A DNA stretch of 64,000 nucleotides from Byssovorax sp. GTDB lineage: Bacteria; Myxococcota_A; Polyangia; Polyangiales; Polyangiaceae. The stretch covers positions 1,556-65,555 of the forward strand of contig JBDTXR010000002.1 in NCBI GenBank assembly GCA_040006075.1, given 5' to 3'. Positions 1-23,862 of this stretch are shown piece by piece; within the stretch, counting starts at the first letter, position 1; each line of letters begins with the position of its first letter. A program made the translations under genes and the position numbers. Below the pieces are notes generated by a model. That model worked only from the letters and a program-made list of their open reading frames with translations, was not told the origin of the DNA and searched no databases.

Positions 1-184
1 ATTGCTCGACCCGGGTCTCGGAGAGGGTGCCAAAGACGGTGTGCTGAGCGAGGCGGCGGAGCAGCGCGAGTTTGTCGGAGGTTTGGGGCTCGCGAGCGAG
101 GCGGCGGGCGCGCAGCGCGTGGAGGGCGCTGAAGTCGACGAGGCTGCGGAGCGCGGGGAGCGTGATCGCGGGGCGCGGCGTCAT
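1..184 (-). CDS. hypothetical protein, 5' part only (gene runs off the left edge); third gene of the AlbA_2/NACHT operon
   Basis: My own minus-strand translation starts at ATG 184-182, 5 nt after the TGA (192-190) of the NACHT gene. It reads MTPRPAITLPALRSLVDFSALHALRARRLAREPQTSDKLALLRRLAQHTVFGTLSETRVEQ, with G/C at nearly every third codon position. It is absent from the ORF track because no stop lies in the window. No family recognised. Confidence 0.5.
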   Translation of the reverse strand, partial: MTPRPAITLPALRSLVDFSALHALRARRLAREPQTSDKLALLRRLAQHTVFGTLSETRVEQ

Positions 185-189
185 CGGGA

Positions 190-3100
190 TCAGCCGGCGG
201 GCTCGGAGGGGCCGCTGGCTTCGCGGGTGGCGATGGTCCAAAGGGCGGTGAAGATATGGTCGGAGTAGGCGCTGGGCTGCTCGTGGCCAGCCATGTAGCC
301 AGCGAGACGTCCGGCTTCTTTGTTGGATGCGAGCTGGCCGATAGCGGTGCAGATCGCGTTCAATTGCTTCTCCTGCGGATTTTGGGCTGCTGCCATCATG
401 GGTTCCAGCGCCTCCTTTGCTCCGAGTTCGCCGAGTGCGTGGATGGCATCGGCTCTTAGTACTCCGTCGTCATGGAGAAATACATCGAGCAACGGGCCTA
501 TGGCGGCGTCCTGTTTATGATGTGCGAGAGCAATTGCGGCGGCGGTTTTGACGCGAACATCCGTGTCGCTAAGCGCCGCTCTGTACGCCTTCATGGCGCG
601 CTCCGACGACATCCTAGAAATGGCCTTGATAGCGCTCGCGCGCACCATCGCAGAAAAGTCGCCAGTCAACGCTAGCAGCGGTTCGAGCGCGGCTTCGACT
701 CCGATTAATGCGTTGACCGCCCCCAAGCGCACGTGTTTGTCTTGGCTGCGAAGGATGTTGATTCGGTCCTTCTCGGTATGCCATCGGGGGGTTATTAGCT
801 TTCCCATGAACGAAATGAAATTGTCGTCGGATACATCGAAGACGCCGACGATCGGCTCGCTTGACACGGCGATAGCCAGAGCGGTGCAAAATCGAACGTC
901 AGATTTTTCGTCGGAAATCAAGATCTTCAGCCAGTCCGCATCCCTGAAGTGTACGAATGTCGCAGCGAGCGCCATTTGCACCATACAAGATTTGTTCTGC
1001 TGAAGGATGTGAGCTGCCGTCGTAGCCTCCGCATGTGACAGATACTTCAGCGCACCCGCCGCAGCTGCTCGAACACCCTCGTCTCCATCTCGCAATATGT
1101 TCTTTAGCTGAGATTCAGAGAGATCTCGTGCGCGCGGAGACAGCGCATTAATGGCGGCGGAGCGAACCTCGGGGCGCGGATCGGATAGGCTTAGCGCGAT
1201 GCTTTGAGTGATGTCTTTTGACAGGAAACTGTGCAGCGCGATCGCTGCCGCCTTACTCACCGTAGTGCTCCCATCCGACAGCGCGCCAACCAGCGCTTCT
1301 TCTACGCCAGCGGCTCGCAAGTGTCCGAGTGCTGACGCGATGCGAGCGCGCGCGTTATCGTTTCCCTTCCCAATCCGACGCACGCAAGCCATCGCAACGC
1401 GCGGCGCAAAGTCCGTCAGAGCAAGCTCCTTTAGAAATGGCTCCACCAGGTCACGCGGCATCACGGCGACCCATGTAGCCATATCCTCCGCAACCCGCAG
1501 TTGGAGCGCCTCTGGCGGCGCATCTCCGGCCTCCGCAGCAAGAAGCGCCGCGAGCGGCACCTGCTTCTTCAAGAGCTTGGTAACCCACGCCCGCGGCTCC
1601 GGCTCCTCGTGCTCCAGCACCTTCTTCACGAAGATCTGCGCTGCCTTCGGACGCTTCTGCACAAGCGCCAGATAACCAACGCCTAGCCGGATTACCTCTT
1701 CCCAGCGAGGATCGAAGAGATGCTGAAGCGCGACGCTCTCGAATTCTTCCTTCGCGTGCAGCCCTGCCGCCACGAAGAACTCTTGAAACGTGAGATGGAG
1801 AAACCCCCACTCCCGGGCGCCGCGCTCCAGGAGGATCTGAACGTCGTCCCCGGCGCGCTTCAGGAACTCGCGCGCGGCTCGCTTGGCGACGGAGGGAGTC
1901 ACGCTCTTCTGCTGGCCTAATGCTTCCTCAATCTTGCGGAGCACGAACTCTTCCGGCGCGATGCCGGTTGGGTACTGCTCGTGCATCGCCAGCGCCAGTT
2001 CGCCCAGGATGGGCAGCGCCTCTTCCTCGTACTCGATAACAGCCGCATTGACCTTGTCAAACACGAGCCGACGTGTTTCGGTCCACGTCTCGCACAGCGC
2101 TCGCGCAAAGACCTCATAAGCCTGCACGCGGTGACGCGGCAGCTTCCCCTCCGCGCGATGAATCAGCGCCAGCGCGGAGAGCATGAAAGGATTCCGCGCC
2201 AGACTCAAGAGCCTCGGGCTGGCCCGCAGCGCTTCGAGGAGCCGATTCGCTTCCCCCTCGTCGGTCGGCTCCGCGTCCGTCTCCCAGCGCACGTAAGCCC
2301 GATGAAATACGCGGACGTACAGGTCGACCTGCTCTTCGTTGAACGGACGCAGCACCACCTCTGCAACGTCCCCTGGGAGCTGGAACCCGGTGTACCCAAC
2401 GACGCGCGATGAGACGAGGAACCGGTTCTGCGCGTACACCGCTGCGAACGATTCGAGCCACTGATAGATCGCTTGCCGCTCGTCGCTCTTCACCTCGTCG
2501 AGGCCATCGAACAAGACGACGCAACGTCCGCCCTCCAGCTCAGCGGCGAGCAGCTCTCGCAGCTTCGCCTCGTCTTCGTAGATGTTGCGGTCGTGGAGAT
2601 AGCGAGCGAGCGCATCGAGAACCGAGACCGATTGGCCCCCGAGCCCGCGCCGCACCTCAGCGAGGCGCCCTACGCTGACGGGGAGCGGCAACAGGCGCTC
2701 GGAGACGCCAAGCTTCCCATCCAGCGCGAAGCTGCCCGCAGCAGAGACGACCGCGAGCCAGCGCAGCAGCGTCGTCTTCCCGGACCCCGGATCGCCGAGC
2801 ACGACGAGGCTCCGGTGCCGCGCGAACAGCTCGCGAAAGTCACGCGTCCCTTCCTCGTTCACGGCCGGGCTTCGCGCACTCCACGGCAGCGGGATCAATG
2901 CCTCTTCGAGCGCTCTCTCTTTGCGTAGATCCGCGTCGAGGCGGCGGCGCAGCTCGACCTCGGACAACACGAAGATGTCGCGGATATCGAGCCGAGGCGG
3001 CACCTTCTTCTGGAGCCGGAAGCCGACATAACGAACGAGCCGGACGTCGGTTCCGAGGGCATAGCCCCTGAGCCTGTCCCAGAGGCGCGCGGTCTCGCTG

Positions 3101-3699
3101 ACGACGAGTTCGGGCGCTGCCGACGCCGCTGCGCTTGGCGGGAAGGCATAGGTGCAACGCTCGGTGCCGGGGAGACCCCCCAGCTCGGCGAACTCGCGCT
3201 TGCTCTTCTCGACGAGCGGGAGCGCCAAGGCCAGCGCTTCGCTCAGCGCGATCGTCCCGACCTGCGCTTCCGCGGCGAGCTTCCGGCACACGTCGACGTC
3301 ACCGCTGCTCACCAGGCCCGGTTCCGCTCCGGGACGAACGCGCCCGACGTGGGCACCAATCTTTACCGACAGATTCAGCTCGGCTCGAACTCGATTCCAC
3401 AGATCCCTGGCAGCCTTGAACGTATGTCCGGGAAGATCCGCGGCCGGAACGCCGCCAAAGACCAGTAGCAGCGCGTCGCCGTCCCACGCGAGCGGCTCCA
3501 ACGCGCCGTGGTTGCTCGCAATGAGCTCGACCCCGGCCATGTACTGCGCCTGCTGCCGGAGGACTTGCTCGTCGTAGGTCCCGCGCCACGGGAGCGCATC
3601 CTGGGGCAGCTCGATTCGCACGAGTCCGGCAAACGCGCCTTCCGCCGGCGCGTCCGTCAGCCAGGCCGGAAGCACCACGTTCGAAGCAGACTCGGTCAC
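190..3699 (-). CDS. NLR-like STAND NTPase: class III nucleotide-cyclase-like N-terminal domain + NACHT P-loop NTPase + C-terminal HEAT-type repeats
   Basis: Part of ORF 190..4287(-). I take the start as GTG 3699-3697 (VTESASNVVLPAW...), which overlaps the TGA of the upstream gene (GTGA). Walker A is LVVLGDPGSGKTTLLRWL (~nt 2772-2796) and Walker B is CVVLFDGLDEV (~2491-2520). Cyclase-like motifs are GDALLLVFGG, KIGAHVGRV and GDVDVCRKLAAEAQVGTIALSEAL. The C-terminal part carries repeated D..VR.aA..AL units (PEVRSAAINAL, DEGVRAAAAGAL, HVRLGAVNAL, AMVRASAIKAI, DVRVKTAAAIAL). Confidence 0.85.
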   Translation of the reverse strand: MTESASNVVLPAWLTDAPAEGAFAGLVRIELPQDALPWRGTYDEQVLRQQAQYMAGVELIASNHGALEPLAWDGDALLLVFGGVPAADLPGHTFKAARDLWNRVRAELNLSVKIGAHVGRVRPGAEPGLVSSGDVDVCRKLAAEAQVGTIALSEALALALPLVEKSKREFAELGGLPGTERCTYAFPPSAAASAAPELVVSETARLWDRLRGYALGTDVRLVRYVGFRLQKKVPPRLDIRDIFVLSEVELRRRLDADLRKERALEEALIPLPWSARSPAVNEEGTRDFRELFARHRSLVVLGDPGSGKTTLLRWLAVVSAAGSFALDGKLGVSERLLPLPVSVGRLAEVRRGLGGQSVSVLDALARYLHDRNIYEDEAKLRELLAAELEGGRCVVLFDGLDEVKSDERQAIYQWLESFAAVYAQNRFLVSSRVVGYTGFQLPGDVAEVVLRPFNEEQVDLYVRVFHRAYVRWETDAEPTDEGEANRLLEALRASPRLLSLARNPFMLSALALIHRAEGKLPRHRVQAYEVFARALCETWTETRRLVFDKVNAAVIEYEEEALPILGELALAMHEQYPTGIAPEEFVLRKIEEALGQQKSVTPSVAKRAAREFLKRAGDDVQILLERGAREWGFLHLTFQEFFVAAGLHAKEEFESVALQHLFDPRWEEVIRLGVGYLALVQKRPKAAQIFVKKVLEHEEPEPRAWVTKLLKKQVPLAALLAAEAGDAPPEALQLRVAEDMATWVAVMPRDLVEPFLKELALTDFAPRVAMACVRRIGKGNDNARARIASALGHLRAAGVEEALVGALSDGSTTVSKAAAIALHSFLSKDITQSIALSLSDPRPEVRSAAINALSPRARDLSESQLKNILRDGDEGVRAAAAGALKYLSHAEATTAAHILQQNKSCMVQMALAATFVHFRDADWLKILISDEKSDVRFCTALAIAVSSEPIVGVFDVSDDNFISFMGKLITPRWHTEKDRINILRSQDKHVRLGAVNALIGVEAALEPLLALTGDFSAMVRASAIKAISRMSSERAMKAYRAALSDTDVRVKTAAAIALAHHKQDAAIGPLLDVFLHDDGVLRADAIHALGELGAKEALEPMMAAAQNPQEKQLNAICTAIGQLASNKEAGRLAGYMAGHEQPSAYSDHIFTALWTIATREASGPSEPAG

Positions 3700-4850
3700 G
3701 ACGCCTCCTGCGGCTTCGATCGGAGCACCACACGGAAGTGGCCTCCCTCCAGGTTGAACTCGGGCTCCGGGAACCCAAGCTCGCTCATCTTCGCGATCAT
3801 CTCCGGCACGCCGATACCCAGGCTCTCGCTCCGCCGCGCCCGCGACAGCAGCGCGGCGATCACCGGATTCCGCCGCACGCTGATCCCCCCGAGCCGCACA
3901 CTGTCGAGCGTGAGATGGTTCAGCAGCAGCCCTGGATTGATGATCTCGATCCGATCCGAGAAAACAAAGAGCCGCACCTGCGAAGCCGCCCGGTAATCCC
4001 GGTGCGCGAGCGCATTGACGAGCGCCTCGCGGAGCACCACCTCTGGAACCCCCCGCGCCGCGCGCTCGAAACCCGAAATCCCCTCCGGCGTCGGCAAGAA
4101 CATGCTCGCATGATCGAGCTGCTGCAGAAGCGTCCCGCCGATCTCCTTCCGGTCCGCGAACTCGCCCGACATCGCCGTCCCCGCGAAGCGAACCGCAGAG
4201 ATCCGCGCATCCGGGATCCACCGCTGCGGCTCCCGGCCAAACAGCAGCAGCCCCGCCACCGTCGGCACCCCCGCGGCATCCAGGCACTTGAACGAGCGAA
4301 GGTAATGCTCGCGTCGCGCGGTCGCGCTCGGCTCGTAGTGGGCTCGGAGATATCCATCAATCGCCTCGACGTCGAGATCGTCGATCTTCGCCCCGTCCAC
4401 CGTCGACTCGTCGTGATAGACGTTCTGCGATTGCAGCAAGCGGAGCATCTCTTCGCGTGACGCCTCGCGGGTCATGCTGGCGTCGCGGATGTAGAAGATA
4501 TGCTCGGCCCGATAAGGCCGGTCGGGGCTCGACGCGGGGACGTCGACGACGATCAGCAGCTTGCCCGCCACCTCGGCCTTGGTGATCGGGCACCAGATCG
4601 CCGGCCGGATCAGGCTCTGGCACACCTGCACGACCTGGAGCATCAGCGTGTCGGCCTGCTTCACCGTCCCGACGCCGCTGATCGTCCCGTCGTCCTCGAC
4701 CCCGACGAAAATCTGTCCCCCGCGGGCGTTCGCGAAGGCCGAGATCGCGCGGGCCAGAACCTTCCCATCGAGCCCCCGGGACGAGCTCTTGAACTCGGTC
4801 CGCGAGTCTTCTCCGAGCTGAATGCGCTGCGCGATCGTTGTAGCGTCCAC
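3696..4850 (-). CDS. Schlafen-like AlbA_2 domain + HATPase_c_4 domain protein (putative nucleic-acid-binding ATP-binding protein)
   Basis: C-terminal 384 aa of ORF 3696..5837(-). I take GTG 4850 (VDATTIAQRIQLGEDSRTEFK) as the start, because longer in-frame starts would overlap the divergent gene at 4977. The AlbA_2 motif is EDSRTEFKSS...ISAFANARGGQIFVGVEDDGTISGV. The HATPase_c_4 motif is REALVNALAHRDYRAASQVRLFVFSDRIEIINPG. Confidence 0.8.
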   Translation of the reverse strand: MDATTIAQRIQLGEDSRTEFKSSSRGLDGKVLARAISAFANARGGQIFVGVEDDGTISGVGTVKQADTLMLQVVQVCQSLIRPAIWCPITKAEVAGKLLIVVDVPASSPDRPYRAEHIFYIRDASMTREASREEMLRLLQSQNVYHDESTVDGAKIDDLDVEAIDGYLRAHYEPSATARREHYLRSFKCLDAAGVPTVAGLLLFGREPQRWIPDARISAVRFAGTAMSGEFADRKEIGGTLLQQLDHASMFLPTPEGISGFERAARGVPEVVLREALVNALAHRDYRAASQVRLFVFSDRIEIINPGLLLNHLTLDSVRLGGISVRRNPVIAALLSRARRSESLGIGVPEMIAKMSELGFPEPEFNLEGGHFRVVLRSKPQEAS

Positions 4851-4976
4851 GGCGCGGAGGGTACTCGCAGCCGGCGCCGATGGCGAGGCGCACGTCGGCA
4901 GCCGCAGAGCCCGCGCGCTCCAGCGGCGACGCAAGAGATATCTTGCGCTCCCGCCCGACCTGGATAGCCTCGCGGC

Positions 4977-5789
4977 ATGGGGAGCAAGGGAAAGAAAATG
5001 ACAACTCATCTCGATCGCTGGCACACCGACGCCGTCGCCCTCGTCGCCACCGAGAATCCGCTCCGCGTGCCCTACGACGTCTTCCTGAGCGAGGCCGGGC
5101 AAGTCGCGAAGTTCTTCGCCAGACACTGGGAGCCAACTCCGGGCCTCCCGGGCCTCTCGCGAGTGAAGGCGCGTTTGCCGAAGAGCACCGGAGACGACAT
5201 CCTCTCTCTCGTCCACGCAACGCAAGAGCAGCAGACCAGGCTCCTTCTCCTCGTCGATCCGGTGGTCGTGGACCAGGGTGAGCGCGCCCGTTTTCTCATC
5301 GATGAGCTGGAGTCCGCGCTGGAGTTCCTGCTCGACGACGACGTCACCGAAGAGGCTGATACCCAGCTCGCCGCCCTCCAGGCGTTTCACGCCCAGGCCG
5401 GGCAACGATCGAGCGTGCTGCACCAGGCGTTGAGCGATTATGCCGCTCTGGCCGGGTCGCTGCAAGCGCGGCTCGTCGCTGTGGACGAGGCGTTCGACGT
5501 GGCGCTCATCGCCGAGGCCAGGGCGCTCGGCACGAAGCTGGCCGCTGCGCCGGCCGCGCCGCCTCCGGCGCAAGAGGCGGTGAAGAGCGCGGTGCTCGCG
5601 CGCAATGGCCTGCTCACGCTGCTCGGCAACAAGATCGCGCTGGTGCGCAAGGGCGCGGCGCATGTGTTCCGGGCCTTCCCGGAGACGTATCGCGAGGTCA
5701 CGAGCACCTATGAGCGGCGGCGCCGGGCGGCGGCGCGGCGGGCGAAGGGGAAAGAGGCGGGCAAGGCGAAGGGCGAGGGCGGCGGATGA
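4977..5789 (+). CDS. hypothetical helical protein with a Lys/Arg-rich C-terminal tail
   Basis: ORF 4977..5789 with an ATG start. Its composition is balanced and Leu/Ala/Glu-rich, unlike the Arg/Pro/Gly-rich overlapping shadow ORFs. It is divergent from the AlbA_2 gene. No family recognised. Confidence 0.6.
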   Translation: MGSKGKKMTTHLDRWHTDAVALVATENPLRVPYDVFLSEAGQVAKFFARHWEPTPGLPGLSRVKARLPKSTGDDILSLVHATQEQQTRLLLLVDPVVVDQGERARFLIDELESALEFLLDDDVTEEADTQLAALQAFHAQAGQRSSVLHQALSDYAALAGSLQARLVAVDEAFDVALIAEARALGTKLAAAPAAPPPAQEAVKSAVLARNGLLTLLGNKIALVRKGAAHVFRAFPETYREVTSTYERRRRAAARRAKGKEAGKAKGEGGG

Positions 5790-8578: not shown

Positions 8579-8674
8579 ACTAGAGCCTCTCGCGCGACGT
8601 GGGGGCGCAACCTGCGCGGGGCCGAACGGCGCTGCTTGGCGCGAGGATCGCGCGCCGGGGTATGCTCGCGCTCG

Positions 8675-11600
8675 ATGTCCGATTCGACGAGGCGCGCCGC
8701 GAAGGCACCGAGCACCGGCTCGGGCAGCGGGCGGCGGGAGCTCTTGCAGACGCTCCCGCTCCCGCTCGCGCAGCTCCTCCGCCGCGCGCTCAACGGCAAG
8801 AGCGCTGCCGAGCGCCACCACGGCGCCTTCTACCTCGCGGAGGGCACGCTGAAGATCGCCTCGGCGGCGCGCGTGGGCCTGTGGATGGATCGCGCCCTGG
8901 TCCCCGGCGGCGATCTCGCGCGCAAGCTCGAGGCGCTGGTGCTCCCGTCGCTCGGCCACTGGTGCGAGATGCTCCGCGAGCTCACCCTCGCGCTCTCGAA
9001 GCGCCCCGACGTAGCGCTGCTCCCGCCCCTCTGCGACGCGGCCGCGCTGGCGCGCAAGCGGCCCGAATGGGCCCACGTCGCGGCCCTCTGTCGCCGCGGC
9101 GTCGAGGTCGAGATCTTCGGCGAAGAGCCGGCAAAACAAGCCTTGCGACGCGGGACGCTCGGGTTCTTCGATCTGGTGGTCGCCTACCGCAACGTGGTCA
9201 TCGGCCACGGCGCCCAGCGCACCTCGGCGTTCTACGAAGAGCTCGCGCGCCTGCTCCTCGACGCGGTGGTGGAGGTGCTCGCCGATCCCGCGCTGCTCGG
9301 CGGCCTCGAGCTCGCGCAGGCGCGGCTCGAGCTCGACGGCGAGACCAGCCACACCACCTGGTACGCGCTCACCGGGCTCGCGGGCCTGCCCCGCGACGAC
9401 GACGCGGGCGACGCTGTGCCCGGGCATCTCTACCTGATCGGGCCGGGCGCGCGGGTGCCGCTGCACCCGCTGCTGGTGTACCGGCAGGAAGACGAGCTCG
9501 GCCGCGAGCAGGTCGGATTTCTCAACAAAGCGGCGCGCAAACGGCCCGATCGCGAGGGCGTCGCCGGCGCCGTGCAGCGCGCGGAGTACCTTGATTACGC
9601 CTCCGGGCAGACGCTCGACGACGTCGACGCGCGCGCCGCGCTCACGGCCCTGCTCGCGCGGCTCGAAGGGCGCGCGGTCACCCCGAGCGACGTCGACGCG
9701 AAGGCCCTCGCGACGCGCGCGGAGGCCGCCGCCGAGCCCGGTGACGACGCGGCGCCCGTGGGCGCGACCATCGGCGATTTCGAGCTGATGGGCGAGCTCG
9801 GGCGCGGATCGATGGGCGTGGTCTACAAGGCGCGGCAACGAAGCCTCGGGCGCGTCGTCGCCCTCAAGGTGCTGCCCCCCGCGCTCGCCGCCGACCGGGT
9901 CGCGCAGAAGCGCTTCAAGAACGAGATGCTCGCGCTGGCGCGCTGCGATCACCCCAACGTCGTGCGGATCCTCGCCACCGGCTCCGACGGCGACAGCGAC
10001 TACTACGCGATGGAGTACGTCGACGGCAGCGATCTCGCGCGCGCCGCGAGCCTGCCGGTCGATCGCCTGGCCGAGCTCTTCGCGGGCGCGGCCGACGGCC
10101 TCGCGCACCTCCACGAGAACGGGATCTTGCACCGGGATATCAAGCCCGGAAACCTCATGGTCACCGCCGACGGCCGGCGCGTGGTGATCATGGATCTCGG
10201 CCTCGCCAAGCTCGCCGACGCGTCGCAGGCGCTGACCTCGGCCGACGTGAAGATCCTCGGCACGCTCCGCTACATGGCGCCCGAGCAGCTCCAGCGTCGC
10301 CTCGTCGAGGTCGACGCGCGCGTCGACGTGTACGGCCTCGGCGCCGCCCTCTACGAGCTCGCGACCGGGCGTCCGATCCACGACGGCGAGACCGAGGTCC
10401 GCCTGATCCAGCAGGTGCTCAACGAAGAGCCGATGCCGCCTCGGCGCGCCAACCCCGCGCTTCGAAGCGATCTGGCGGCGGTGATCCAGGCCGCGACGGC
10501 GAAGCTCCCGGCGCAGCGCTACGCGTCCGCCGCGGCGTTCGCCGAGGATCTCCGCGCGGTGGCCCGCGACCAGCCGATCCGGGCGCGGCCCCCCGGCCTC
10601 GCGCGCACGGCGATGCGCTGGGCGAAGCGTCATCGACCTCTCTTCCTCGGCCTCGGCGCGGCGCTGCTCGCGATCGCCGCGGGCGGCGTCGCCCTCTGGG
10701 ATCATCAGCGCCTCAAGGCCGGCTACTACGCCTTCTACATCGATCGACGAGGCGCGTTCGAAGGCGTGGGCGAGGTTCCCGGGCCTGACGGGCGAAGCTT
10801 CACGTTCAAGGTGATCCGCCGCGGCGGCCGCATGGTGACGGTCGAGTGCGTCAATGGACGCGGCGCGCCCCACGCGTGCGGCGACTTCTCGTCCGTCGAG
10901 TTCCACTACGCCGACGACGGCGCGATCTCGCACCGCATCTTGCGCGGTCCGACCGGGAGATTCCTGGCGAAGTACGCGTACACCTACCAGGGTCAGAAGC
11001 TCCAGATCCTGCGGCTCGATCGCCACGATCTCCCGCTGCCCGAGCTCGGCGACGTGGCCATGTACCGCTTCGAGGTCGACGCGCAGGGGTTCCGTCGCAA
11101 GGTCACGTACTTCAACGATCGCGGCTCGCCGCGGCAGAGCTTCGGCGCCTACGGCTACGACCAGACCAACGACGAGTTCGGCGAGCCAACTACGCTGGTG
11201 TTCCTCGACGAAGCCGGCGCGCCGCTGGTGCGCAGCGACGGCGTCGCGCGCGCGACGATCACCTGGCTAGGGGCCGGCAACGAGGCCTCGCGCTCGTTCT
11301 TCGGGGTCGACGGGAAGCCGGTCCTCAACCCCGGGTTCGCTGCCGAGATCCGTCACCGGATCGACGCGCGCGGGAACCAGATCGAGCGCGCCTTCTACGG
11401 GGTCGACGGCAAGCTCGCGCTCCAGGCCGACGGCATCGCGCTCTGGCGCGCGCGCTTCGACGAGCACGGCTGTCTCGTCGAGAAGCGCTTCTTCGGGCCG
11501 GACGAGCGCCTGATCGTCAACAAGCTGGGCTTCGCCTCGATGGCCTCGAAATGCGACGAAAACGGCCGGGAAATCGAGCGGGCGCACTTCGGCGTGGCGG

Positions 11601-12604
11601 GCGAGCGGGTGGTGATGCGCGAGGGCTTCTCGATGTACCGATCGCGCTACGACGCCCAGGGCAACGAGGTCGAGCGGTCGTTCTTCGGCGCCGACGATCG
11701 GCCGCTGCCCAACGCCGGCGGCGCCGCGGTGGTCCGCACCACCTTCGACGAGCGCGGCAACGTGGTGGAGGTCGCGTCGTTCGGCGTCGACGGCCGGCCG
11801 GTGGTGGTGACCGCGGGCCGCGCGACCATTCGCTACCGTCACGACGATCGCGACAACGAGATCGAGCGCGCGACCTTCGGCGTCGACGGCGCCCGCGTCG
11901 TCCCGCGCGACGGCTGCGCGATCGAGCGCGCGAAATTCGACGAGCGCGGCAAGGAGATCGAGCGCGCTTGCCTGGGGATCGACGAGAAGCCGCGCTTGAC
12001 CAGGGAGGGCTGGGCCGTGGTCCGCTCCAGGGTGGACGAGCGCGGCAAATCGATCGAGAAGGCCTATTTCGGCGTGAACGACGCCCCCGCGCTCCTCCGC
12101 GACGGCTACGCGGGCCTGCGGATCGGCTACGACGATCGCGGCAACGAGAACGCGCGGACCTACCTCGGCAGCAACGGCGCGCCCGCGCTGAACGCCGACG
12201 GCTACGCGATCTGGCGAGGCAAATCCGACGAGCGTGGCCGGGTGATCGAGGAGACCCACTTCGGCCCCGACGGCGCCCCGGTGCTCCGCGCGCGCGGCTA
12301 TTCGATGCGCACGATCAGCTACGACGCGCACGGGAACGTCTTCGAGCGCGCCCACTTCGACGTCGGCGGCCGCCCGGTGCTCCGCGACGACGGCTACGCG
12401 ATCGAGCGCTCGCGCTACGACGCGCGCGACAACGAGATCCGGCGCGAATACCTGGGCGTCGGGGGAGAGCCGGTGCTCCGCAAAGGGGGCTATGCGGCGT
12501 TCCGCGCGAGCTACGACGAGGTGAGCCGGCTGGTCGAGAAGGTCTATCTCGATCTCGCCGGCAACCCGGTCGCGGCGCCTCCGCCCGACGCGCCGTCGCC
12601 CTGA
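8675..12604 (+). CDS. receptor-type Ser/Thr protein kinase with an unknown N-terminal domain, one TM helix and an extracytoplasmic YD-like repeat array
   Basis: Part of ORF 8636..12604 (start is TTG 8636 or, preferred, ATG 8675). Kinase motifs are GRGSMGVVYKA, VALKVL, HRDIKPGNLMV, DLGLAK and RYMAPE (~nt 9770-10560). The TM helix is LFLGLGAALLAIAAGGVALW. Tandem repeats follow. Confidence 0.85.
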   Translation: MSDSTRRAAKAPSTGSGSGRRELLQTLPLPLAQLLRRALNGKSAAERHHGAFYLAEGTLKIASAARVGLWMDRALVPGGDLARKLEALVLPSLGHWCEMLRELTLALSKRPDVALLPPLCDAAALARKRPEWAHVAALCRRGVEVEIFGEEPAKQALRRGTLGFFDLVVAYRNVVIGHGAQRTSAFYEELARLLLDAVVEVLADPALLGGLELAQARLELDGETSHTTWYALTGLAGLPRDDDAGDAVPGHLYLIGPGARVPLHPLLVYRQEDELGREQVGFLNKAARKRPDREGVAGAVQRAEYLDYASGQTLDDVDARAALTALLARLEGRAVTPSDVDAKALATRAEAAAEPGDDAAPVGATIGDFELMGELGRGSMGVVYKARQRSLGRVVALKVLPPALAADRVAQKRFKNEMLALARCDHPNVVRILATGSDGDSDYYAMEYVDGSDLARAASLPVDRLAELFAGAADGLAHLHENGILHRDIKPGNLMVTADGRRVVIMDLGLAKLADASQALTSADVKILGTLRYMAPEQLQRRLVEVDARVDVYGLGAALYELATGRPIHDGETEVRLIQQVLNEEPMPPRRANPALRSDLAAVIQAATAKLPAQRYASAAAFAEDLRAVARDQPIRARPPGLARTAMRWAKRHRPLFLGLGAALLAIAAGGVALWDHQRLKAGYYAFYIDRRGAFEGVGEVPGPDGRSFTFKVIRRGGRMVTVECVNGRGAPHACGDFSSVEFHYADDGAISHRILRGPTGRFLAKYAYTYQGQKLQILRLDRHDLPLPELGDVAMYRFEVDAQGFRRKVTYFNDRGSPRQSFGAYGYDQTNDEFGEPTTLVFLDEAGAPLVRSDGVARATITWLGAGNEASRSFFGVDGKPVLNPGFAAEIRHRIDARGNQIERAFYGVDGKLALQADGIALWRARFDEHGCLVEKRFFGPDERLIVNKLGFASMASKCDENGREIERAHFGVAGERVVMREGFSMYRSRYDAQGNEVERSFFGADDRPLPNAGGAAVVRTTFDERGNVVEVASFGVDGRPVVVTAGRATIRYRHDDRDNEIERATFGVDGARVVPRDGCAIERAKFDERGKEIERACLGIDEKPRLTREGWAVVRSRVDERGKSIEKAYFGVNDAPALLRDGYAGLRIGYDDRGNENARTYLGSNGAPALNADGYAIWRGKSDERGRVIEETHFGPDGAPVLRARGYSMRTISYDAHGNVFERAHFDVGGRPVLRDDGYAIERSRYDARDNEIRREYLGVGGEPVLRKGGYAAFRASYDEVSRLVEKVYLDLAGNPVAAPPPDAPSP
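11240..12585 (+). repeat. coding tandem repeat: about 14 consecutive 33-residue (99-nt) units
   Basis: Units such as GFAAEIRHRIDARGNQIERAFYGVDGKLALQAD, GFSMYRSRYDAQGNEVERSFFGADDRPLPNAG and GYAIERSRYDARDNEIRREYLGVGGEPVLRKG, with consensus G(Y/F)a..R..YDeRGN.IER.yFG.DG.Pv. More degenerate copies lie upstream from about 10850. Confidence 0.8.
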
Positions 12605-19896: not shown

Positions 19897-22800
19897 ATGG
19901 GCGACGTGACCGCGGTGATGATGGACTGCATCACCGAAAAATCAGGGCATTCCGTGACGCCGATGGCGGTGAGCGTGTGCATCACGCCAGCGGCTCCGGC
20001 GCCGCTGCCGCTCCCGTACCCGGTGGTGGCGAGCTCGATCGAGGGCATCGGCGACGCGCCGATGCGGACCAAGATCAACGGCGCGCTGATCGGCACCGTG
20101 GGATCGGTCCTGAAGACCTGTCACGGGAACGAGCCCGGGACGCTGAAAGAGGTTGTGAGCCTCAACACCGCCGGCCCGTGCTTCATCCTCATGGGCGCGC
20201 CGGTGGTGCTCTGCGAGCTCGGGATGATGGGGATCACCGGCAGCCTGTGCATGCAGAACAAGGCCCCGACCCCCGGCGCCGGAGGCAGCGCCAGCGACGC
20301 GAGCGGAACCGGCGGCGCGGGCAGCGGCGGGGGCGAGGCGGGCGGCGGCGGGGGCTCGGGCCATGGTCCAGGCGGCCCGGCCGGCGGCGGCGGCGCGGGC
20401 GGCGGAGGGAGCAACAGCGGCGCGGCCGGGCCGGGGGCGTCGTCGGGAGCGGCGGCGGAGCATCAGTGTCAAGGCGGACACCCGATCGATCTCGTGACTG
20501 GATACGTCGTCGATGAAGCGACCGACATCTCGCTCCCCGGCGTCATCCCGCTCTATGTAAAGCGGGTCTACTCGTCGTCGCGCCGGAGCGACAAGACAGC
20601 CACGCTCGGCGCGGGCTGGGCGCACGGGTTCGAGCAGCGCCTCGTCGAGGCCGAGCGGACGATCACCCTGCGCGAGGCCGAGGGCCGCTCGATCTACTTC
20701 GCCAAGGTCAAGCCCGGTGAGAGCACGTTCCACCGGCGCGAGCGGATGACGCTGGAGCGGGATACCGACGGCGGGTATCGAGTCCACGATCACCGGACGC
20801 GGCTCACGCTCGTCTTCGCCGGTGACGGGGTCAACGCGCCGGCTCCCCTCTCCTCGATCCGCGACGCGTGGGGCAACGCGATCGTGCTCGAATACAGCGG
20901 CGCGCGGCTCCTGCGAATGATCGACACCGCGGGTCGCGAGGTGCGCGTCCTCTGGAAAGAGGCGAGGATTGCTCGGCTCGAGGTGCGCTCCGAAGACCGG
21001 TTAGAGCAATGGGTGGACTACACCTACTCGGGCTCGGGGTGCCTCACCGCCGTCACCGACGCGCTCGGGGCAACGGAGGAGTTCGAATACGACCGCTTCA
21101 ACCGCATGACCGCCGCCGTCCTCGCGACCGGCGCGCGCTTTCAGTACGAGTACGAGGCGGACACCGGGCGTTGCCGCAAGACCTGGGGCCCGAAGGGCCT
21201 CTACGCGATCGAGCTCGAGGCCGACAAGGCGACGAAGACGACGCACGTCGACGCGGAAGAGCCGCGGATCATCACCTGGAACGATCAAGGGCTCGCGACC
21301 CGCGAGGCGACCCCCGGCGGGACGATCCTCGAGGACCGCGCCTACGACGATGATGGCCTCTTGATCGCCAGGGTCAACGGCGCAGGCGAAGGCGAGCAGT
21401 ACTGGTACGACGAGCGCGGGAACCAGATCCGCAGCGTCGACGCCGCGGGAAACGTCACCGCGTGGGAGTACGACGCGCAGAGTCTGCCCGTCAGCATGGC
21501 CACGCCCGACGGGCTGGTCACCCACTATGGTCACGACGACAAGGGCGCGCTGACCAGCGTCACCTACCGCACCGGAGAGCGCTATTCCCTGGGCTACGAC
21601 GCCCGGGGCCGGCTCACCGCGGTCCACGGACCCGCCGGGCCCGTGTGGGGTTTCGAGTACGACGCGAAGCACGATCTGGTGGCCCAGGTCGACGCGCGGG
21701 GCGGCCGGACCACCTTCGAGCACGACGCGGTGGGGCGCCTCGTTCGCCGCACCGACGCGCTCGGGCGCACCTGGAACGCGACCTACGATCGGCTCGGGCG
21801 CGCCATCGGGGTGCGCTACCCGGACGGCGGCATGGTCCAGCGGGCGTACGACGCGATGGGGAAGGTCGTGCGCGAGACCGACGCGCTCGGGAACGTCACG
21901 TCGATGGAGTACGCCGGCATGGGCGTGCTCACGCGGCTGGTGCAGTGTGACGGCGGCGTCTGGACGCTCGCCTACACGAGCCACGAGCGCATCCGGGAGA
22001 TCAAGAATCCTCTCGGCGAGACCTATTCGTTCACCTACGACGACGCCGGCCGCCCGGTCGAGGAGAAGCGCTTCGACAAGAGCGAGCTCGCGTATCTGTG
22101 GTCCGACGGAGGGCGCCTGTCGCGGCTCACGTATCCCGACAAGAGCTCTCGCGCCTTCTCCCACGACCGCGTTGGCCGGCTGATCCGCGACGAGGGCAGC
22201 GACGGGAGCACCGTCGCGTACGCGCGCGATCGGATGGGCCGGATCCTCGGCGCCACGCTGGAGGAGCATGGGCGGCGGGTTCAAACGATCTTCGAGCGCG
22301 ACCCCGTCGGTCGCGTGCTGGTCGAGCGGCAGGGCGACCGGGCGATCCGCTATACCCACGAAGCGAGCGGACGGCGCACCAGCCGGGTGATGCCCGACGG
22401 CGCTACCACGCAGTATGCCTACGACGCAGGCGGCGCCCTCTCGGCGATCGATCACGACGGGCACAAGCTGGTGTTCGAGCGCGACGTCGCGGGTCGCGAG
22501 ACGCGCCGGGTGGCGGGCGGGCACGTCGCCATCCAGAGCACCCACGACGCGATGGATCAGCTGATCGAGCAGCGCGCCACCGTGCCTTCGCCGGGCGGCG
22601 GCGTCCCTGCGGTGCTGCTCCAGCGGCAATGGCAGTACGACAAGGCCGGTCGGATCACGAGGATCGACGACGCGCGGTGGGGAGCGACGGCCTACACCTA
22701 CGATCGGATGCACCGGCTCGTCGGCGCGGCGCAGGCGACGCAGCGAGAGGTGTTCGAGTACGATCCTTCGGGCTCCCTCGTCAGGATGCTCGAGGGGCTG

Positions 22801-23862
22801 GGCGGCGAGCCCCGCGGCGCAGAAGGCTGGGAGCTGAAGCCGGGCAATGTGCTCGTGCGCAGCGACAAGGCCAAGTTCGTCCACGACAAGCGAGGGCGTC
22901 GGACCGCCAGAGTCGAGCTCCCGGTCGGGGGCAACGCGCCCGCGGACGGTATCACCGAGTACGCGTGGGACATCCGCGACCGGCTGCGCGAAGTCAAGCT
23001 CCCCGGCGGCGCCCGCGTCGCGATTACCTACGACGCCTTCGGTCGGCGCGTGCGCAAAGAGGTGAGCACGAGCGCCACAACGGGCCTCCCGCGCGTCACC
23101 GAGCTCCTGTGGGACGGCGAGGTCCTCGCCGCGGATCTCGACAGCGAGCGGGGCACGCGGTGCTTCGTCCACGAGCCGGAGACGTTCATTCCGCTCCTCC
23201 AGCAAGAGCGCGGCAAGGTGCTCACCTACGTCAACGATCACCTGGGGACACCCAAAGCACTCCTCGATTCCGAGGGGCGCGTCGCCTGGTCGGCCAGGCA
23301 CTCTGCCTGGGGCCGAGTGGTCGAGACCTACGCTGATCCGCTCGCGGAGCTCGCCCGCGGCGGGTACAAGGTGGAGTCGCCCTTCCGGCTGCTCGGGCAG
23401 GTGGCGGACGACGATACTGGCCTTTGCTGGACGCGATACCGGTGCTTCGACCCGGAGGTCGGTCGCTGGTGCAGCCCGGATCCTTCGGGGCTCGTGGGCG
23501 AAGGCAACCTGTTCGGCTTCGAGGGGAGCCCGACGACGCACGTGGATCCGCTCGGACTCACCGGCGCGGCGCACCAGACAGGCGGCACGCGCGGACCCGT
23601 CGTTCCCGCGGGGAAGGCCGTCGCCGTCGAGCGCGGCCCCGGTGGGCTGACCGCGACTTCACGGCCAATGACCGTGGAGCAGGCGCGCAGGCACGTCGCC
23701 GCCGGCGGAGATGTCTACGCGGATCGGGCCACCGCCCAGGCCATCGCCGGTCGTCGCTCGACAGGGCCGGAGACGCACCCCAGAGAGGGAGAGACGCGCT
23801 TTCCCCACTATCACCAGGCGGACCATAAAGGCGGGCACATCTTCTTCGGCACCGGCGGCTGA
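19897..23862 (+). CDS. PAAR-like (DUF4150-type) - Rhs/YD-repeat polymorphic toxin with a short unclassified C-terminal domain
   Basis: The N-terminus VCITPAAPAPLPLPYPVVASS...HGNEPGTLKEVVS is DUF4150-like. A Gly-rich linker spans ~20266-20460. Many YD repeats follow (YDxxGR/N...). The Rhs core end is RYRCFDPEVGRWCSPDP...SPTTHVDPLGL, ending at 23559. A 100-aa tip follows. Confidence 0.9.
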   Translation: MGDVTAVMMDCITEKSGHSVTPMAVSVCITPAAPAPLPLPYPVVASSIEGIGDAPMRTKINGALIGTVGSVLKTCHGNEPGTLKEVVSLNTAGPCFILMGAPVVLCELGMMGITGSLCMQNKAPTPGAGGSASDASGTGGAGSGGGEAGGGGGSGHGPGGPAGGGGAGGGGSNSGAAGPGASSGAAAEHQCQGGHPIDLVTGYVVDEATDISLPGVIPLYVKRVYSSSRRSDKTATLGAGWAHGFEQRLVEAERTITLREAEGRSIYFAKVKPGESTFHRRERMTLERDTDGGYRVHDHRTRLTLVFAGDGVNAPAPLSSIRDAWGNAIVLEYSGARLLRMIDTAGREVRVLWKEARIARLEVRSEDRLEQWVDYTYSGSGCLTAVTDALGATEEFEYDRFNRMTAAVLATGARFQYEYEADTGRCRKTWGPKGLYAIELEADKATKTTHVDAEEPRIITWNDQGLATREATPGGTILEDRAYDDDGLLIARVNGAGEGEQYWYDERGNQIRSVDAAGNVTAWEYDAQSLPVSMATPDGLVTHYGHDDKGALTSVTYRTGERYSLGYDARGRLTAVHGPAGPVWGFEYDAKHDLVAQVDARGGRTTFEHDAVGRLVRRTDALGRTWNATYDRLGRAIGVRYPDGGMVQRAYDAMGKVVRETDALGNVTSMEYAGMGVLTRLVQCDGGVWTLAYTSHERIREIKNPLGETYSFTYDDAGRPVEEKRFDKSELAYLWSDGGRLSRLTYPDKSSRAFSHDRVGRLIRDEGSDGSTVAYARDRMGRILGATLEEHGRRVQTIFERDPVGRVLVERQGDRAIRYTHEASGRRTSRVMPDGATTQYAYDAGGALSAIDHDGHKLVFERDVAGRETRRVAGGHVAIQSTHDAMDQLIEQRATVPSPGGGVPAVLLQRQWQYDKAGRITRIDDARWGATAYTYDRMHRLVGAAQATQREVFEYDPSGSLVRMLEGLGGEPRGAEGWELKPGNVLVRSDKAKFVHDKRGRRTARVELPVGGNAPADGITEYAWDIRDRLREVKLPGGARVAITYDAFGRRVRKEVSTSATTGLPRVTELLWDGEVLAADLDSERGTRCFVHEPETFIPLLQQERGKVLTYVNDHLGTPKALLDSEGRVAWSARHSAWGRVVETYADPLAELARGGYKVESPFRLLGQVADDDTGLCWTRYRCFDPEVGRWCSPDPSGLVGEGNLFGFEGSPTTHVDPLGLTGAAHQTGGTRGPVVPAGKAVAVERGPGGLTATSRPMTVEQARRHVAAGGDVYADRATAQAIAGRRSTGPETHPREGETRFPHYHQADHKGGHIFFGTGG

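Follow-up and report, generated by a model that had tools for sequence, protein, structure and literature searches.

A Myxobacterial Schlafen-ATPase Paired With a Cyclase-Homology–NACHT–HEAT Protein Looks Like a Variant of Bacterial Antiviral NLR Systems

A pair of adjacent myxobacterial genes encodes a Schlafen-type protein with its own ATPase domain (gene 1) and an NLR-like STAND protein (gene 2). We read this pair, with middling confidence, as an NLR-type conflict module with a separately encoded effector and, most likely, an antiviral role. The pair is followed by a putative nuclease gene (gene 3) in the window, as we call the whole 64,000-nt stretch of a Byssovorax sp. contig that was analyzed. 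Sequence comparison across related loci indicates that the conserved unit is the pair of genes 1 and 2 and that gene 3 is an accessory of a close subclade.

All three genes lie on the minus strand (Table 1). A first-pass annotation of the window had described three co-directional genes, joined by a GTGA stop/start overlap and a 5-nt spacer and divergent from an open reading frame at 4977..5789, and the layout and its coordinates were reproduced. The start of gene 1 agrees with the 384-aa gene calls in two related loci (L002 and L003), and the spacing between genes 2 and 3 is tight elsewhere too (5 nt in L001 and L004, 3 nt in L003). The promoter of the module presumably lies in the intergenic region upstream of gene 1, in which no sigma-70-type consensus was found; the adjacency of the divergent frame is not conserved at other loci. 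The module is chromosomal and has a GC content of 0.59-0.68, compared with 0.70 for the window. Its neighbors in the window encode a Ser/Thr kinase, a cytochrome c peroxidase, a lectin and an esterase, and an Rhs toxin gene lies 15 kb off.

Table 1. Positions of the genes, domains and motifs of the module in window coordinates.
Feature	Position	Strand	Details
Gene 1	3696..4850	-	GTG 4850-4848 to TGA 3698-3696; 384 aa
SLFN_AlbA_2 domain, gene 1 aa 14-130	4461..4811	-	Pfam E=6.9e-20, ~72 bits, cut-off 25.3
EDSRTEFK, E(x)4ExK motif of gene 1 AlbA_2	4788-4811	-	
SAFAN box of gene 1 AlbA_2	4728-4742	-	
GVEDDG acidic motif of gene 1 AlbA_2	4686-4703	-	
EALVN, GHKL E-x-x-x-N	4014-4028	-	just upstream of HATPase_c_4 match
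HATPase_c_4 (GHKL ATPase), gene 1 aa 290-376	3723..3983	-	Pfam E=2.9e-21, 75.7 bits, cut-off 26
GTGA stop/start overlap of genes 1 and 2	3696..3699	-	couples both genes
Gene 2	190..3699	-	GTG 3699-3697 to TGA 192-190; 1169 aa
Class III cyclase-homology domain, gene 2 aa ~18-190	3130..3648	-	AF2 model, Foldseek and profile
NACHT module, gene 2 aa 297-468	2296..2811	-	Pfam E=6.8e-12, 46 bits, cut-off 26.7
Walker A GDPGSGKT, gene 2 aa 302-309	2773-2796	-	
Walker B VVLFDGLDE, gene 2 aa 394-402	2494-2520	-	
HEAT-repeat C-terminal region, gene 2 aa ~759-1156	232..1425	-	HEAT_2 E=1.2e-28
Spacer, gene 2 stop to gene 3 start	185..189	-	5 nt
Gene 3, first 61 codons	1..184	-	ATG 184-182; remainder left of window edge
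Intergenic region	4851..4976	.	bounded by gene 1 and divergent ORF 4977-5789

Gene 1 unites AlbA_2 (PF04326) and a GHKL ATPase (PF13749) in one polypeptide, both above gathering scores and both already recognized at first pass (72.2 and 75.7 bits in Pfam), and therewith has the make-up of a "Schlatpase." The PADLOC pAgo model aligned to almost the whole protein (aa 32-382, E=3.9e-16). Gene 1 shares these two domains and their nuclease and ATP-binding motifs with the Schlatpase/SLFN-pAgo protein RzAgo: the nuclease motifs mark active, tRNA-cleaving SLFN-pAgo, and residues E314 and N318 of RzAgo are ATP/Mg ligands equivalent to the GHKL E-x-x-x-N (bioRxiv 10.64898/2026.05.29.728809). All nine paired loci retain the E(x)4(D/E)xK, GVEDDG-type and E-x-x-x-N motifs of gene 1; three of them also have the SAFAN box unchanged, and the other six have (S/A/V)(F/L)AN variants. 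Prokaryotic Schlafens are antiphage tRNases by experiment (PMC13056530, PMC13462974), and the motifs make gene 1 an active-looking effector, a predicted Schlafen RNA nuclease. Unlike SLFN-pAgo, it has no pAgo part and, in Pfam, no C-terminal HTH tail, a fold that accounts for over 90% of the annotated C-terminal tails of Schlatpase proteins (bioRxiv 10.64898/2026.05.29.728809). The Schlatpases partnered with gene 2 homologues form a distinct tail-less clade, and this absence of the HTH tail is consistent with gene 2 providing the regulation in trans.

The product of gene 2 has the same sequence as P0001 (annotated "HEAT repeat domain-containing protein [Byssovorax sp.]") and is a tripartite NLR-like STAND protein with a cyclase-fold N-terminus, a central NACHT and C-terminal HEAT repeats. 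Pfam recovered the NACHT and HEAT assignments of the first-pass annotation, and both Walker motifs were located. No other part of the module diverges as fast or has as low a GC content (0.587 vs. 0.700 for the window) as the HEAT region, the presumed sensor: its identity to orthologues is 29-56%, compared with 77-81% for the NACHT part and 85-89% for gene 1. NCBIfam gave a weak match of gene 2 to the antiphage NACHT protein EruA (35 bits, with a cut-off of 1000), and PADLOC matched no NACHT, Avs or system model.

The cyclase-like N-terminus suggested at first pass is missed by Pfam, with no Guanylate_cyc match even at E<=10 among 13 family members scanned. It is supported by an AlphaFold2 model (pLDDT 80.6, pTM 0.80), for which every one of the top 50 Foldseek matches in the PDB was a class III cyclase domain (best E=4e-10, TM 0.63-0.77), and by a 25-sequence profile that matched the cyclases 3mr7 (E=2.3e-4, 155 positions) and CyaB (E=8.7e-4). 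By model and profile alike, the domain is real as a fold. It shares this fold with class III cyclases (Ma1120, Rv1900c, 3mr7) and keeps the second metal-binding Asp and the G-x-H core motif, but the window protein lacks the canonical catalytic set: it has E30 at Asp1, D75 at Asp2, A71 at the Lys, D136 at the Asn and K140 at the Arg position, and its phosphate loop reads Q-D-A instead of G-S-T. Loss of the phosphate loop and the change of Asp1 to Glu are traits of the window's subclade; the family consensus at the same positions is D, D, H/S, D and H, with G-S-T. Most family members have a near-canonical nucleotide and metal site (F-V-K-I-D-R-x-G-S-T and W-Q-G-D-G-V-M-L-F). Family-wide, the transition-state Asn/Arg are replaced by Asp/His (Asp/Lys in the window protein) and the substrate Lys is missing. 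Asp2 does not vary within the 25-sequence alignment A5; in the set of 108 homologues, 81 have D at this position. Mycobacterial cyclase-STAND-TPR proteins already show a cyclase placed ahead of a STAND NTPase and its helical repeats; here, by contrast, the STAND is a NACHT and is coupled to nucleases.

Gene 3, which the window edge cuts and which the first-pass annotation had left as an unknown, was completed from the sequence left of position 1. The full protein of 448 aa (P0123), encoded by Byssovorax on the same 75,363-bp contig, begins with exactly the 61 aa seen in the window, and its sequence identifies it as an MmeI-type PD-(D/E)xK putative DNA nuclease with a family-specific C-terminal domain. 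The Pfam MmeI_N model matched three orthologues just below its cut-off of 27 (E=1.8e-5 to 1.8e-4, 22-26 bits); bona fide Type IIG enzymes also scored low in the same scan (20-29 bits). Across 57 sequences, D100 and E118 never vary and K120 is kept in at least 90%, in the manner of D...(D/E)xK. In tblastn, gene 3 matched the N-terminal parts of proteins of 1040-1140 aa that carry Eco57I, N6_Mtase and TaqI_C domains (E=1e-6 to 1e-15) and also a phage protein annotated as "type II restriction enzyme, methylase subunit" (E=5e-11); Foldseek listed DrdV among the matches, at a non-significant probability of 0.54. The N-terminal domain with its D...ExK is homologous to that of MmeI-family Type IIL/IIG restriction-modification enzymes (MmeI, DrdV, Eco57I-like). 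Their helicase-spacer, methyltransferase and target-recognition domains are replaced in gene 3 by an orphan domain of ~220 aa, present in only ~80 representative clusters among 1.84 billion proteins, and Pfam found no methyltransferase or target-recognition domain in the orthologues. Gene 3 is not itself a restriction-modification enzyme. Its relatives with 36-40% identity occur by themselves, away from any NACHT or Schlafen gene, which suggests that gene 3 is able to function without the pair. Phage genomes, searched with gene 3 only, yielded no full-length relative.

The pair itself recurs at related loci. A tail-less Schlatpase of 380-398 aa lies directly upstream of the NACHT gene in nine of ten independent loci, over a range of 39-100% identity in gene 2. 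The 4-nt overlap is kept in five of eight related loci (L001, L003, L097, L098, and L102), or in six of nine paired loci once the window is counted. The arrangement is more than chance, because the same gene order is found in these related loci of other organisms together with the overlap. Across pairs of loci, the identity of gene 1 tracks that of gene 2 (r=0.96), a sign of co-divergence, and the flanks are unrelated at every locus compared, with nothing else conserved around the pair. More widely, the lists of gene 1 and gene 2 homologues share 27 exact contig size matches and three adjacent locus-tag pairs. These comparisons support the first-pass view that the Schlafen-like protein is a separate partner, and they show it to be dedicated to the STAND gene. 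The idea of the trio as a unit held for genes 1 and 2 but not for gene 3, which is restricted to the close subclade and has decayed in L004; L006 lacks gene 1. The genomic setting of the pair varies from locus to locus, and the window contains no recognizable defense island. The distribution of the module is patchy across lineages and reaches Planctomycetes and NC10 MAGs, several paralogues are present in Sorangium genomes, and no full-length relatives were found on plasmids. With significant NACHT and AlbA_2 matches, and with the pair upheld between unrelated flanks, the first-pass proposal stands in its main lines.

We propose that gene 2 would act as receptor and switch, its fast-evolving HEAT repeats binding the trigger. 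The NACHT NTPase may then oligomerize and cluster the N-terminal cyclase-homology domains; the clustered cyclase-fold heads would in turn license gene 1 through direct contact, leading to the shutdown of translation. Gene 1, the conserved effector partner, would serve as a Schlafen tRNA/RNA nuclease, and its GHKL domain would drive ATP-dependent oligomerization of this tail-less Schlatpase into the active form. In the window's subclade, the MmeI-type PD-(D/E)xK putative DNA nuclease of gene 3 may have been added downstream as a second effector. The domain identities, catalytic motifs, tight coupling, co-divergence and variable context of the module are observations, while the defense role, the direction of signaling and the communication between cyclase fold and nucleases are inferred. 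Several lines of evidence speak for this reading: the domain identities, the active-looking motifs of gene 1, the dedicated and tightly coupled pairing, wider co-occurrence and co-divergence, the missing tail, an immune-like pattern of evolution, the nuclease character of gene 3 and the precedent of antiphage bNACHT proteins (Kibby et al., bioRxiv 10.1101/2022.07.19.500537). We call the evolution immune-like because the HEAT region diverges, the flanks are unrelated, GC is lowered, and parts of the module are decayed (gene 3 in L004) or missing (gene 1 in L006). Counted against the antiviral reading are the missing defense island, PADLOC model and plasmid relatives, the weak EruA match and the stand-alone relatives of gene 3.

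The route from gene 2 to the nucleases could also be a chemical one, although we consider this unlikely. NACHT oligomerization would here dimerize the cyclase-homology domains, and the resulting nucleotide signal would switch on the Schlatpase and/or the gene 3 nuclease, possibly with the GHKL nucleotide pocket as receptor, in analogy to the activation of Cash by cA4 from Cas10, or to Pycsar. Class III cyclases require dimerization for activity, a need that matches an oligomerizing NLR, and the near-canonical members that make up most of the family are also paired with a Schlatpase (L098). Besides the Schlatpase, most loci have no toxic effector domain, so that some link from the cyclase to the Schlatpase is required. 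Cash (PMC13462974) is a known case of a Schlafen activated by a cyclic nucleotide, and cNMP cyclases on NACHT proteins are regarded as signal-generating effectors (Kibby et al., bioRxiv 10.1101/2022.07.19.500537). These points are opposed by the replaced Asn/Arg, the family-wide absence of the substrate Lys and the fact that Asp1 and Asp2 are not invariant over the 108 homologues, to which the window's subclade adds its lost G-S-T loop and its Glu at Asp1. Moreover, gene 1 and gene 3 contain no CAP_ED, CARF, SAVED or other known nucleotide-sensor domain, unlike the cA4-activated Cash, and the cyclase-like domain has neither PADLOC similarity to Pycsar/CBASS cyclases nor a Pfam Guanylate_cyc match, all of which sets the module apart from Pycsar, CBASS and type III CRISPR-like signaling.

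Cyclase-STAND-repeat regulators also occur in Actinobacteria, and a non-immune role is conceivable on this ground, if quite improbable: the genes would form a cyclase-STAND module for signal transduction in the physiology or development of myxobacteria, akin by analogy to mycobacterial cyclase-ATPase-TPR regulators or MalT-type STANDs, with the AlbA_2/GHKL protein as a nucleic-acid-binding regulator. The lack of a defense-island context in the window, the chromosomal location with several Sorangium paralogues and the names that source records give to relatives of gene 1 ("ATP-binding protein" or "RecG-like") would agree with such a role. It fits poorly with a gene 1 that retains the full nuclease motif set without any HTH, with unrelated genomic contexts and a patchy distribution as far as Planctomycetes and NC10 MAGs, and with a fast-evolving repeat region, a recruited restriction-type nuclease and components lost or decayed at individual loci. 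That a stand-alone Schlafen, a bNACHT and a nuclease are uncoupled and came together by chance or by defense-island co-location appears very improbable. Stand-alone Schlatpases are indeed very common (60,692 proteins reported), most tested bNACHT systems are single-gene (Kibby et al.) and relatives of gene 3 occur alone; yet gene order, orientation and adjacency are equal in 9/10 loci, the overlap is present in 6/9 paired loci, and co-divergence at r=0.96 coincides with otherwise non-conserved flanks and a distinct tail-less clade of partner Schlatpases. For genes 1 and 2, the conserved arrangement and the co-divergence already largely refute mere neighborhood.

The closest precedents for the NLR-type reading are the antiphage bNACHT proteins, whose N-terminal domains include cNMP cyclase, Schlafen and REase, whose sensor repeats include HEAT, and whose catalogued architectures comprise the Schlafen-NACHT fusion bNACHT34 as well as cNMP-cyclase-NACHT proteins (Kibby et al., bioRxiv 10.1101/2022.07.19.500537). 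Gene 2 resembles them in that its central NACHT, with intact Walker A/B, follows an N-terminal domain of enzymatic or adaptor type and precedes HEAT sensor repeats, and the module shares with them the domain vocabulary (Schlafen, REase, cNMP cyclase) and the enrichment in multicellular "deltaproteobacteria." Curated antiphage NACHT models match gene 2 only weakly. Here, in contrast to the bNACHT proteins, the Schlafen is a separate, translationally coupled gene with its own GHKL ATPase and not an N-terminal fusion, the N-terminal position is held by a non-canonical cyclase-fold domain, and the subclade has a third, nuclease gene. By analogy, the module likely shares with SLFN-pAgo the logic of a sensor that licenses an ATP-dependent oligomeric tRNase, but its sensor is a separate NLR-like protein instead of a fused Argonaute core, with no guide nucleic acid. 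With pSlfn, of which a Slfn-HisKinase-like architecture is the commonest class (PMC13056530), and with Cash (PMC13462974) it would have in common a Schlafen RNase as abortive-infection effector under the control of a sensor module; their sensors are fused (Ig-like, DUF262, and Csx15), whereas the STAND NTPase would act in trans.

The first-pass annotation did not recognize the combination as a described system, and none was found in PADLOC or in the literature. Nevertheless, the novelty is that of a variant and not of a new kind, because cyclase-NACHT and Schlafen-NACHT architectures had already been catalogued computationally by Kibby et al. Altogether, this myxobacterial pair, joined in the window by a restriction-type nuclease, looks like a variant of the known bacterial antiviral NLR systems.

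The left end of the window carries three co-directional minus-strand genes, whose positions, overlap and spacer all agree with the first-pass annotation. The GTG start of gene 2 and the TGA stop of gene 1 form a GTGA tetranucleotide (3699-3696) common to both, and a 5-base spacer (189-185) separates the gene 2 stop from the start of gene 3. Gene 2 encodes the same sequence as P0001, a 1169-aa protein listed from a Byssovorax sp. MAG (75,363-bp contig). A promoter and terminator scan gave no signal above chance.

Coordinates of the three genes at the left end of the window
Feature	Position	Strand	Basis
Gene 1	GTG 4850 to TGA 3698-3696	(-)	ORF reading of window
Gene 2	GTG 3699 to TGA 192-190	(-)	ORF reading of window
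Gene 3 start	ATG 184; window edge reached after 61 codons	(-)	ORF reading

In gene 1, the SLFN_AlbA_2 (E=6.9e-20) and HATPase_c_4 (E=2.9e-21) domains noticed earlier from motifs both score above the curated Pfam cut-offs. The pairing of AlbA_2 with PF13749 has been named the "Schlatpase" supradomain and is defined by an E(x)4(D/E)xK motif, a SAFAN box, an acidic triad and an E-x-x-x-N motif for ATP/Mg (bioRxiv 10.64898/2026.05.29.728809). Gene 1 contains EDSRTEFK, SAFAN, GVEDDG and EALVN; each of the nine partner genes examined retains the nuclease and GHKL motifs, and six of them carry (S/A/V)(F/L)AN variants of the SAFAN box. In SLFN-pAgo, the Schlafen domain cuts tRNA, and tetramerisation depends on ATP and is driven by the GHKL domain (bioRxiv 10.64898/2026.05.29.728809); the PADLOC pAgo model aligns to gene 1 residues 32-382. 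More than 90% of the annotated C-terminal tails on Schlatpase proteins are HTH domains (bioRxiv 10.64898/2026.05.29.728809). The gene 1 protein ends 8 residues past its GHKL match and therefore has no C-terminal HTH, and nearly all of its 120 closest relatives are tail-less as well, at 380-400 aa. Experiments have established prokaryotic Schlafens as antiphage tRNases (PMC13056530, PMC13462974), and Schlatpase-type proteins have been reported in the literature as auxiliary effectors in BREX loci.

The NACHT domain and HEAT repeats proposed for gene 2 are likewise upheld by Pfam above the curated cut-offs (NACHT E=6.8e-12; HEAT_2 E=1.2e-28) and by intact Walker A (GDPGSGKT) and Walker B (VVLFDGLDE) motifs. 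The domain-profile check suggested for the module thus succeeded for NACHT, AlbA_2, HATPase_c_4 and HEAT_2 and failed for the cyclase: the first ~280 residues of gene 2 have no Pfam match in the window protein or 12 homologues, and a cyclase match is absent from all 13 even at E<=10. The nucleotide-cyclase-like N-terminus is nevertheless corroborated by its predicted fold. Residues 1-197, modelled with AlphaFold2 on the basis of 13 homologues, give a confident structure (pLDDT 80.6, pTM 0.80), whose best 50 Foldseek PDB matches are without exception class III adenylyl/guanylyl cyclase catalytic domains, led by Ma1120 (E=4e-10; TM 0.63-0.77). An earlier 13-sequence profile of this head matched the PDB marginally (E=0.01); it was superseded by a 25-sequence profile with more distant relatives, which matches 3mr7 (E=2.3e-4, 155/174 positions) and CyaB (E=8.7e-4). 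As structural matches and a sequence profile by itself both reach significance, the assignment of the head to the class III cyclase fold is solid.

To map the catalytic positions we used the 25-sequence alignment together with 108 surveyed homologues. In a large subclade (40-50% identity to the window's gene 2 protein) the cyclase site is near-canonical, with the motifs F-V-K-I-D-R-x-G-S-T, W-Q-G-D-G-V-M-L-F and R-I-A-V-H; the transition-state Asn/Arg are replaced by Asp/His (I-D-x-C-G-H-L-E), and His or Ser occupies the substrate Lys position. The window's own subclade is further derived, with Glu30 at the first metal position, Q-D-A where the G-S-T phosphate loop is expected, and Ala71, Asp75, Asp136 and Lys140 among the other site residues. 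Judged by these alignments, the head is a cyclase homologue with non-canonical catalytic residues.

In order to establish which genes belong together, we compared the contexts of gene 2 homologues at 39-100% identity. The comparison covered the window, loci of a Polyangiaceae MAG (L001, L002, L005), L003, L004, Sorangium So ce341 (L096), S. cellulosum (L097), L098, L099, a Planctomycetes MAG (L100, L101), L102 and L103. A 380-398-aa AlbA_2/HATPase_c_4 gene lies immediately upstream of gene 2 on the same strand in nine of nine paired loci, and the 4-nt overlap is kept in six of the nine, window included. Pairwise identities of genes 1 and 2 across loci correlate closely (r=0.96, over 36 non-independent pairs). 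The top-120 homologue lists of the two genes have 27 identical contig sizes (rough chance expectation 2-3) and are linked by three adjacent locus-tag pairs. The upstream placement, the co-divergence and the common contig sizes all favour the earlier proposal that the Schlafen-like protein is a separate partner. The sole exception to the pairing is the locus of Sorangium sp. So ce134 (L006, CP150314.1, 5150-11359), where genes 2 and 3 occur without gene 1; the Schlatpase's place is taken by a 393-aa ORF whose start resembles a signal peptide.

Co-occurrence of the trio, suggested as a check, held for genes 1 and 2; gene 3 is limited to a close subclade (window, L001, L003, L006, and L004 with an internal deletion), which coincides with the subclade of the most degenerate cyclase site. 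Its distant relatives (36-40% identity) are solitary, with no NACHT or Schlafen gene nearby, and an invariable tie to a NACHT gene was rejected on this ground. Since gene 3 is confined in this way and solitary elsewhere, the core is a two-gene module and gene 3 a later accessory to it. In L004 (11441-12066) the gene 3 orthologue is a pseudogene, with residues 1-172 joined straight to 396-429, beside intact genes 1 and 2. No homology was detectable among the flanking genes of these loci (26 proteins), so that a conserved fourth gene or flank was also rejected. In the metagenomic locus L102 (1-4688), the upstream neighbours of the pair include a second STAND protein (BTAD-NACHT/AAA_16-TPR, >1000 aa), an ADP-ribosylglycohydrolase and a 583-aa protein without a family match. 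No other locus seen has surroundings that resemble a defence island as closely. Downstream of the pair in L098 (9954-14458) are two more HEAT-repeat proteins, one with PatA_N, adjoining ExbD genes.

The third gene had been cut by the window edge and called unknown. Completing it succeeded at the protein level: P0123, a 448-aa protein from the same Byssovorax contig, is identical over its first 61 residues to the window translation. Exact-sequence look-ups with genes 1 and 2, P0001 and P0123 did not recover the DNA left of position 1. Across 57 homologues D100 and E118 never vary and K120 hardly does, a PD-(D/E)xK signature, and Pfam MmeI_N matches three orthologues slightly below its cut-off (E=1.8e-5 to 1.8e-4). 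In a metagenome scan, residues ~30-220 were homologous to the N-termini of 1040-1140-aa proteins, which their MmeI_hel, Eco57I/N6_Mtase and TaqI_C domains mark as Type IIG/IIL restriction-modification enzymes; the same residues match a phage "type II restriction enzyme, methylase subunit" (E=5e-11). AlphaFold2 models the protein with very high confidence (pLDDT 92.3). Foldseek gave no significant match for the full-length model and none for its C-terminal half, with non-significant hints at DrdV of the MmeI family (probability 0.54) and Dna2 (E=0.011); a sequence profile against the PDB returned spurious short factor H-binding protein matches only, and PADLOC none. Searched against 1.84 billion proteins, the profile of the C-terminal ~220 residues found just 80 representatives, each belonging to the same two-domain family or being a fragment of it. 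From the MmeI-type homology and this C-terminal search, gene 3 is predicted to encode a restriction-type nuclease domain joined to an orphan domain. It would thereby define a small orphan family in which the MmeI nuclease domain is reused outside any methyltransferase context. Two distant gene-3-like proteins lie on contigs equal in size to those of other NACHT proteins (pairs P0134/P0094, contig size 3809, and P0177/P0105, 5020), and one of these NACHT proteins has a DUF4062 head and an FGE-sulfatase sensor instead of the cyclase head and HEAT repeats; this nuclease family may partner with several NACHT types, or the contig sizes may coincide.

Divergence is uneven along the module. Against three orthologous loci carrying all three genes, identity is 85-89% for gene 1, 77-81% for the NACHT part, 73-81% for gene 3, 64-71% for the cyclase-fold domain and 29-56% for the HEAT region. 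The HEAT-coding part has a GC content of 0.587, compared with 0.65-0.68 in the rest of the module and 0.700 in the window. A GC trough at 1-2000 (0.58-0.62 versus about 0.70-0.74 in adjacent genes) coincides with this region, and gene 2 has a GC3 of 0.74 versus 0.84-0.95 in surrounding genes. Homologues of gene 2 are patchily spread and reach beyond Myxococcota. It is typical of immune genes that a repeat sensor diverges quickly, that genomic surroundings are unrelated, that the distribution is patchy and that individual components are lost. The module's neighbours within the window form no defence island. Mobile-element carriage was rejected: plasmids yielded distant NACHT-region matches and no full-length relatives, and phage genomes, searched with gene 3, RM-enzyme N-domain matches and no full-length gene 3 relative. 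Elsewhere in the window, a 1321-aa PAAR-like/DUF6531/RHS-repeat polymorphic toxin gene (19897-24518, plus strand) is followed directly by a 218-aa ORF without a family match, which may be an immunity gene. A 1322-aa Ser/Thr protein kinase (8636-12604, plus strand) ends in ~600 Pfam-silent residues of tandem ~38-aa units ('ER..FG.DG.P......G.A..R..YD..GN.'); its PADLOC PD-T4-6 matches concern the generic kinase domain only.

The sequence data show the identity of the domains, the conservation of their motifs, and the coupling and co-divergence of the genes; a defence role for the module and its route of activation are inferred. In the best-supported mechanism, to which we give an even chance, the HEAT repeats would sense a trigger and the NACHT domain would oligomerise; the clustered cyclase-fold heads would then license the separately encoded Schlatpase, by contact, to assemble and cut tRNA or other RNA. 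The MmeI-type DNase could serve as a second, partly redundant effector in the window's subclade, and such redundancy fits the loss of gene 3 in L004 and of gene 1 in L006. The main rival, a nucleotide signal produced by the cyclase-fold domain and sensed by the nucleases, has its appeal for the near-canonical subclade; the missing transition-state Asn and Arg and substrate Lys, and the lack of a recognised nucleotide-sensor domain, speak against it, and we consider it unlikely. Slightly less probable still is a specific version in which the head is a trigger-activated nucleotide synthase whose product the partner Schlatpase senses, for example in its GHKL pocket, and answers with tRNA cleavage. 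On this view the window's subclade would be derived: its cyclase site would have decayed, signalling would have shifted to contact, and a second effector, a restriction-type DNase, would have been recruited. If true, a bacterial NLR would signal to a Schlafen effector via a diffusible second messenger, linking three immune modules common with animals. A non-immune regulatory role for the module seems about as improbable as that version. That the genes are merely neighbours is very improbable, given their strict pairing and co-divergence.

Several of these parts are known from other systems. The cNMP cyclase, Schlafen and REase domains have been described as N-terminal modules of bacterial NACHT proteins, in which HEAT repeats act as sensors (Kibby et al., bioRxiv 10.1101/2022.07.19.500537), and Kaur et al. 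point out that related STAND conflict systems contain cNMP cyclase domains. In bNACHT34 the Schlafen is fused to the NACHT (bioRxiv 10.1101/2022.07.19.500537), whereas the window module places it in a separate gene. Membership of Pycsar, CBASS or Avs was rejected, as PADLOC matches generic HEAT or P-loop segments of gene 2 only and nothing in gene 3; searching the literature for antiphage work on EruA returned no relevant report. In PADLOC v2, NCBIfam and the literature searched, we found no description of a translationally coupled pair of a tail-less Schlatpase and a cyclase-fold-NACHT-HEAT protein, nor of such a pair with an optional MmeI-type nuclease plus orphan domain, in line with the first-pass annotation, which had not recognised the combination.

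Animal innate-immune components have ancestral relatives in both bacterial NLR-like proteins and Schlafen nucleases, two groups that have so far been studied separately or as single-polypeptide fusions. Here the module is naturally split, with sensor and switch in one gene and the Schlafen-GHKL effector in the next, strictly coupled and co-evolving across at least about 30 contigs. This makes it tractable for asking how an oligomerising NLR passes activation to a separate Schlafen nuclease. The family also presents, on one scaffold, cyclase-fold heads that grade from near-canonical into degenerate, a series that could reveal whether bacterial NLRs ever signal via nucleotides.
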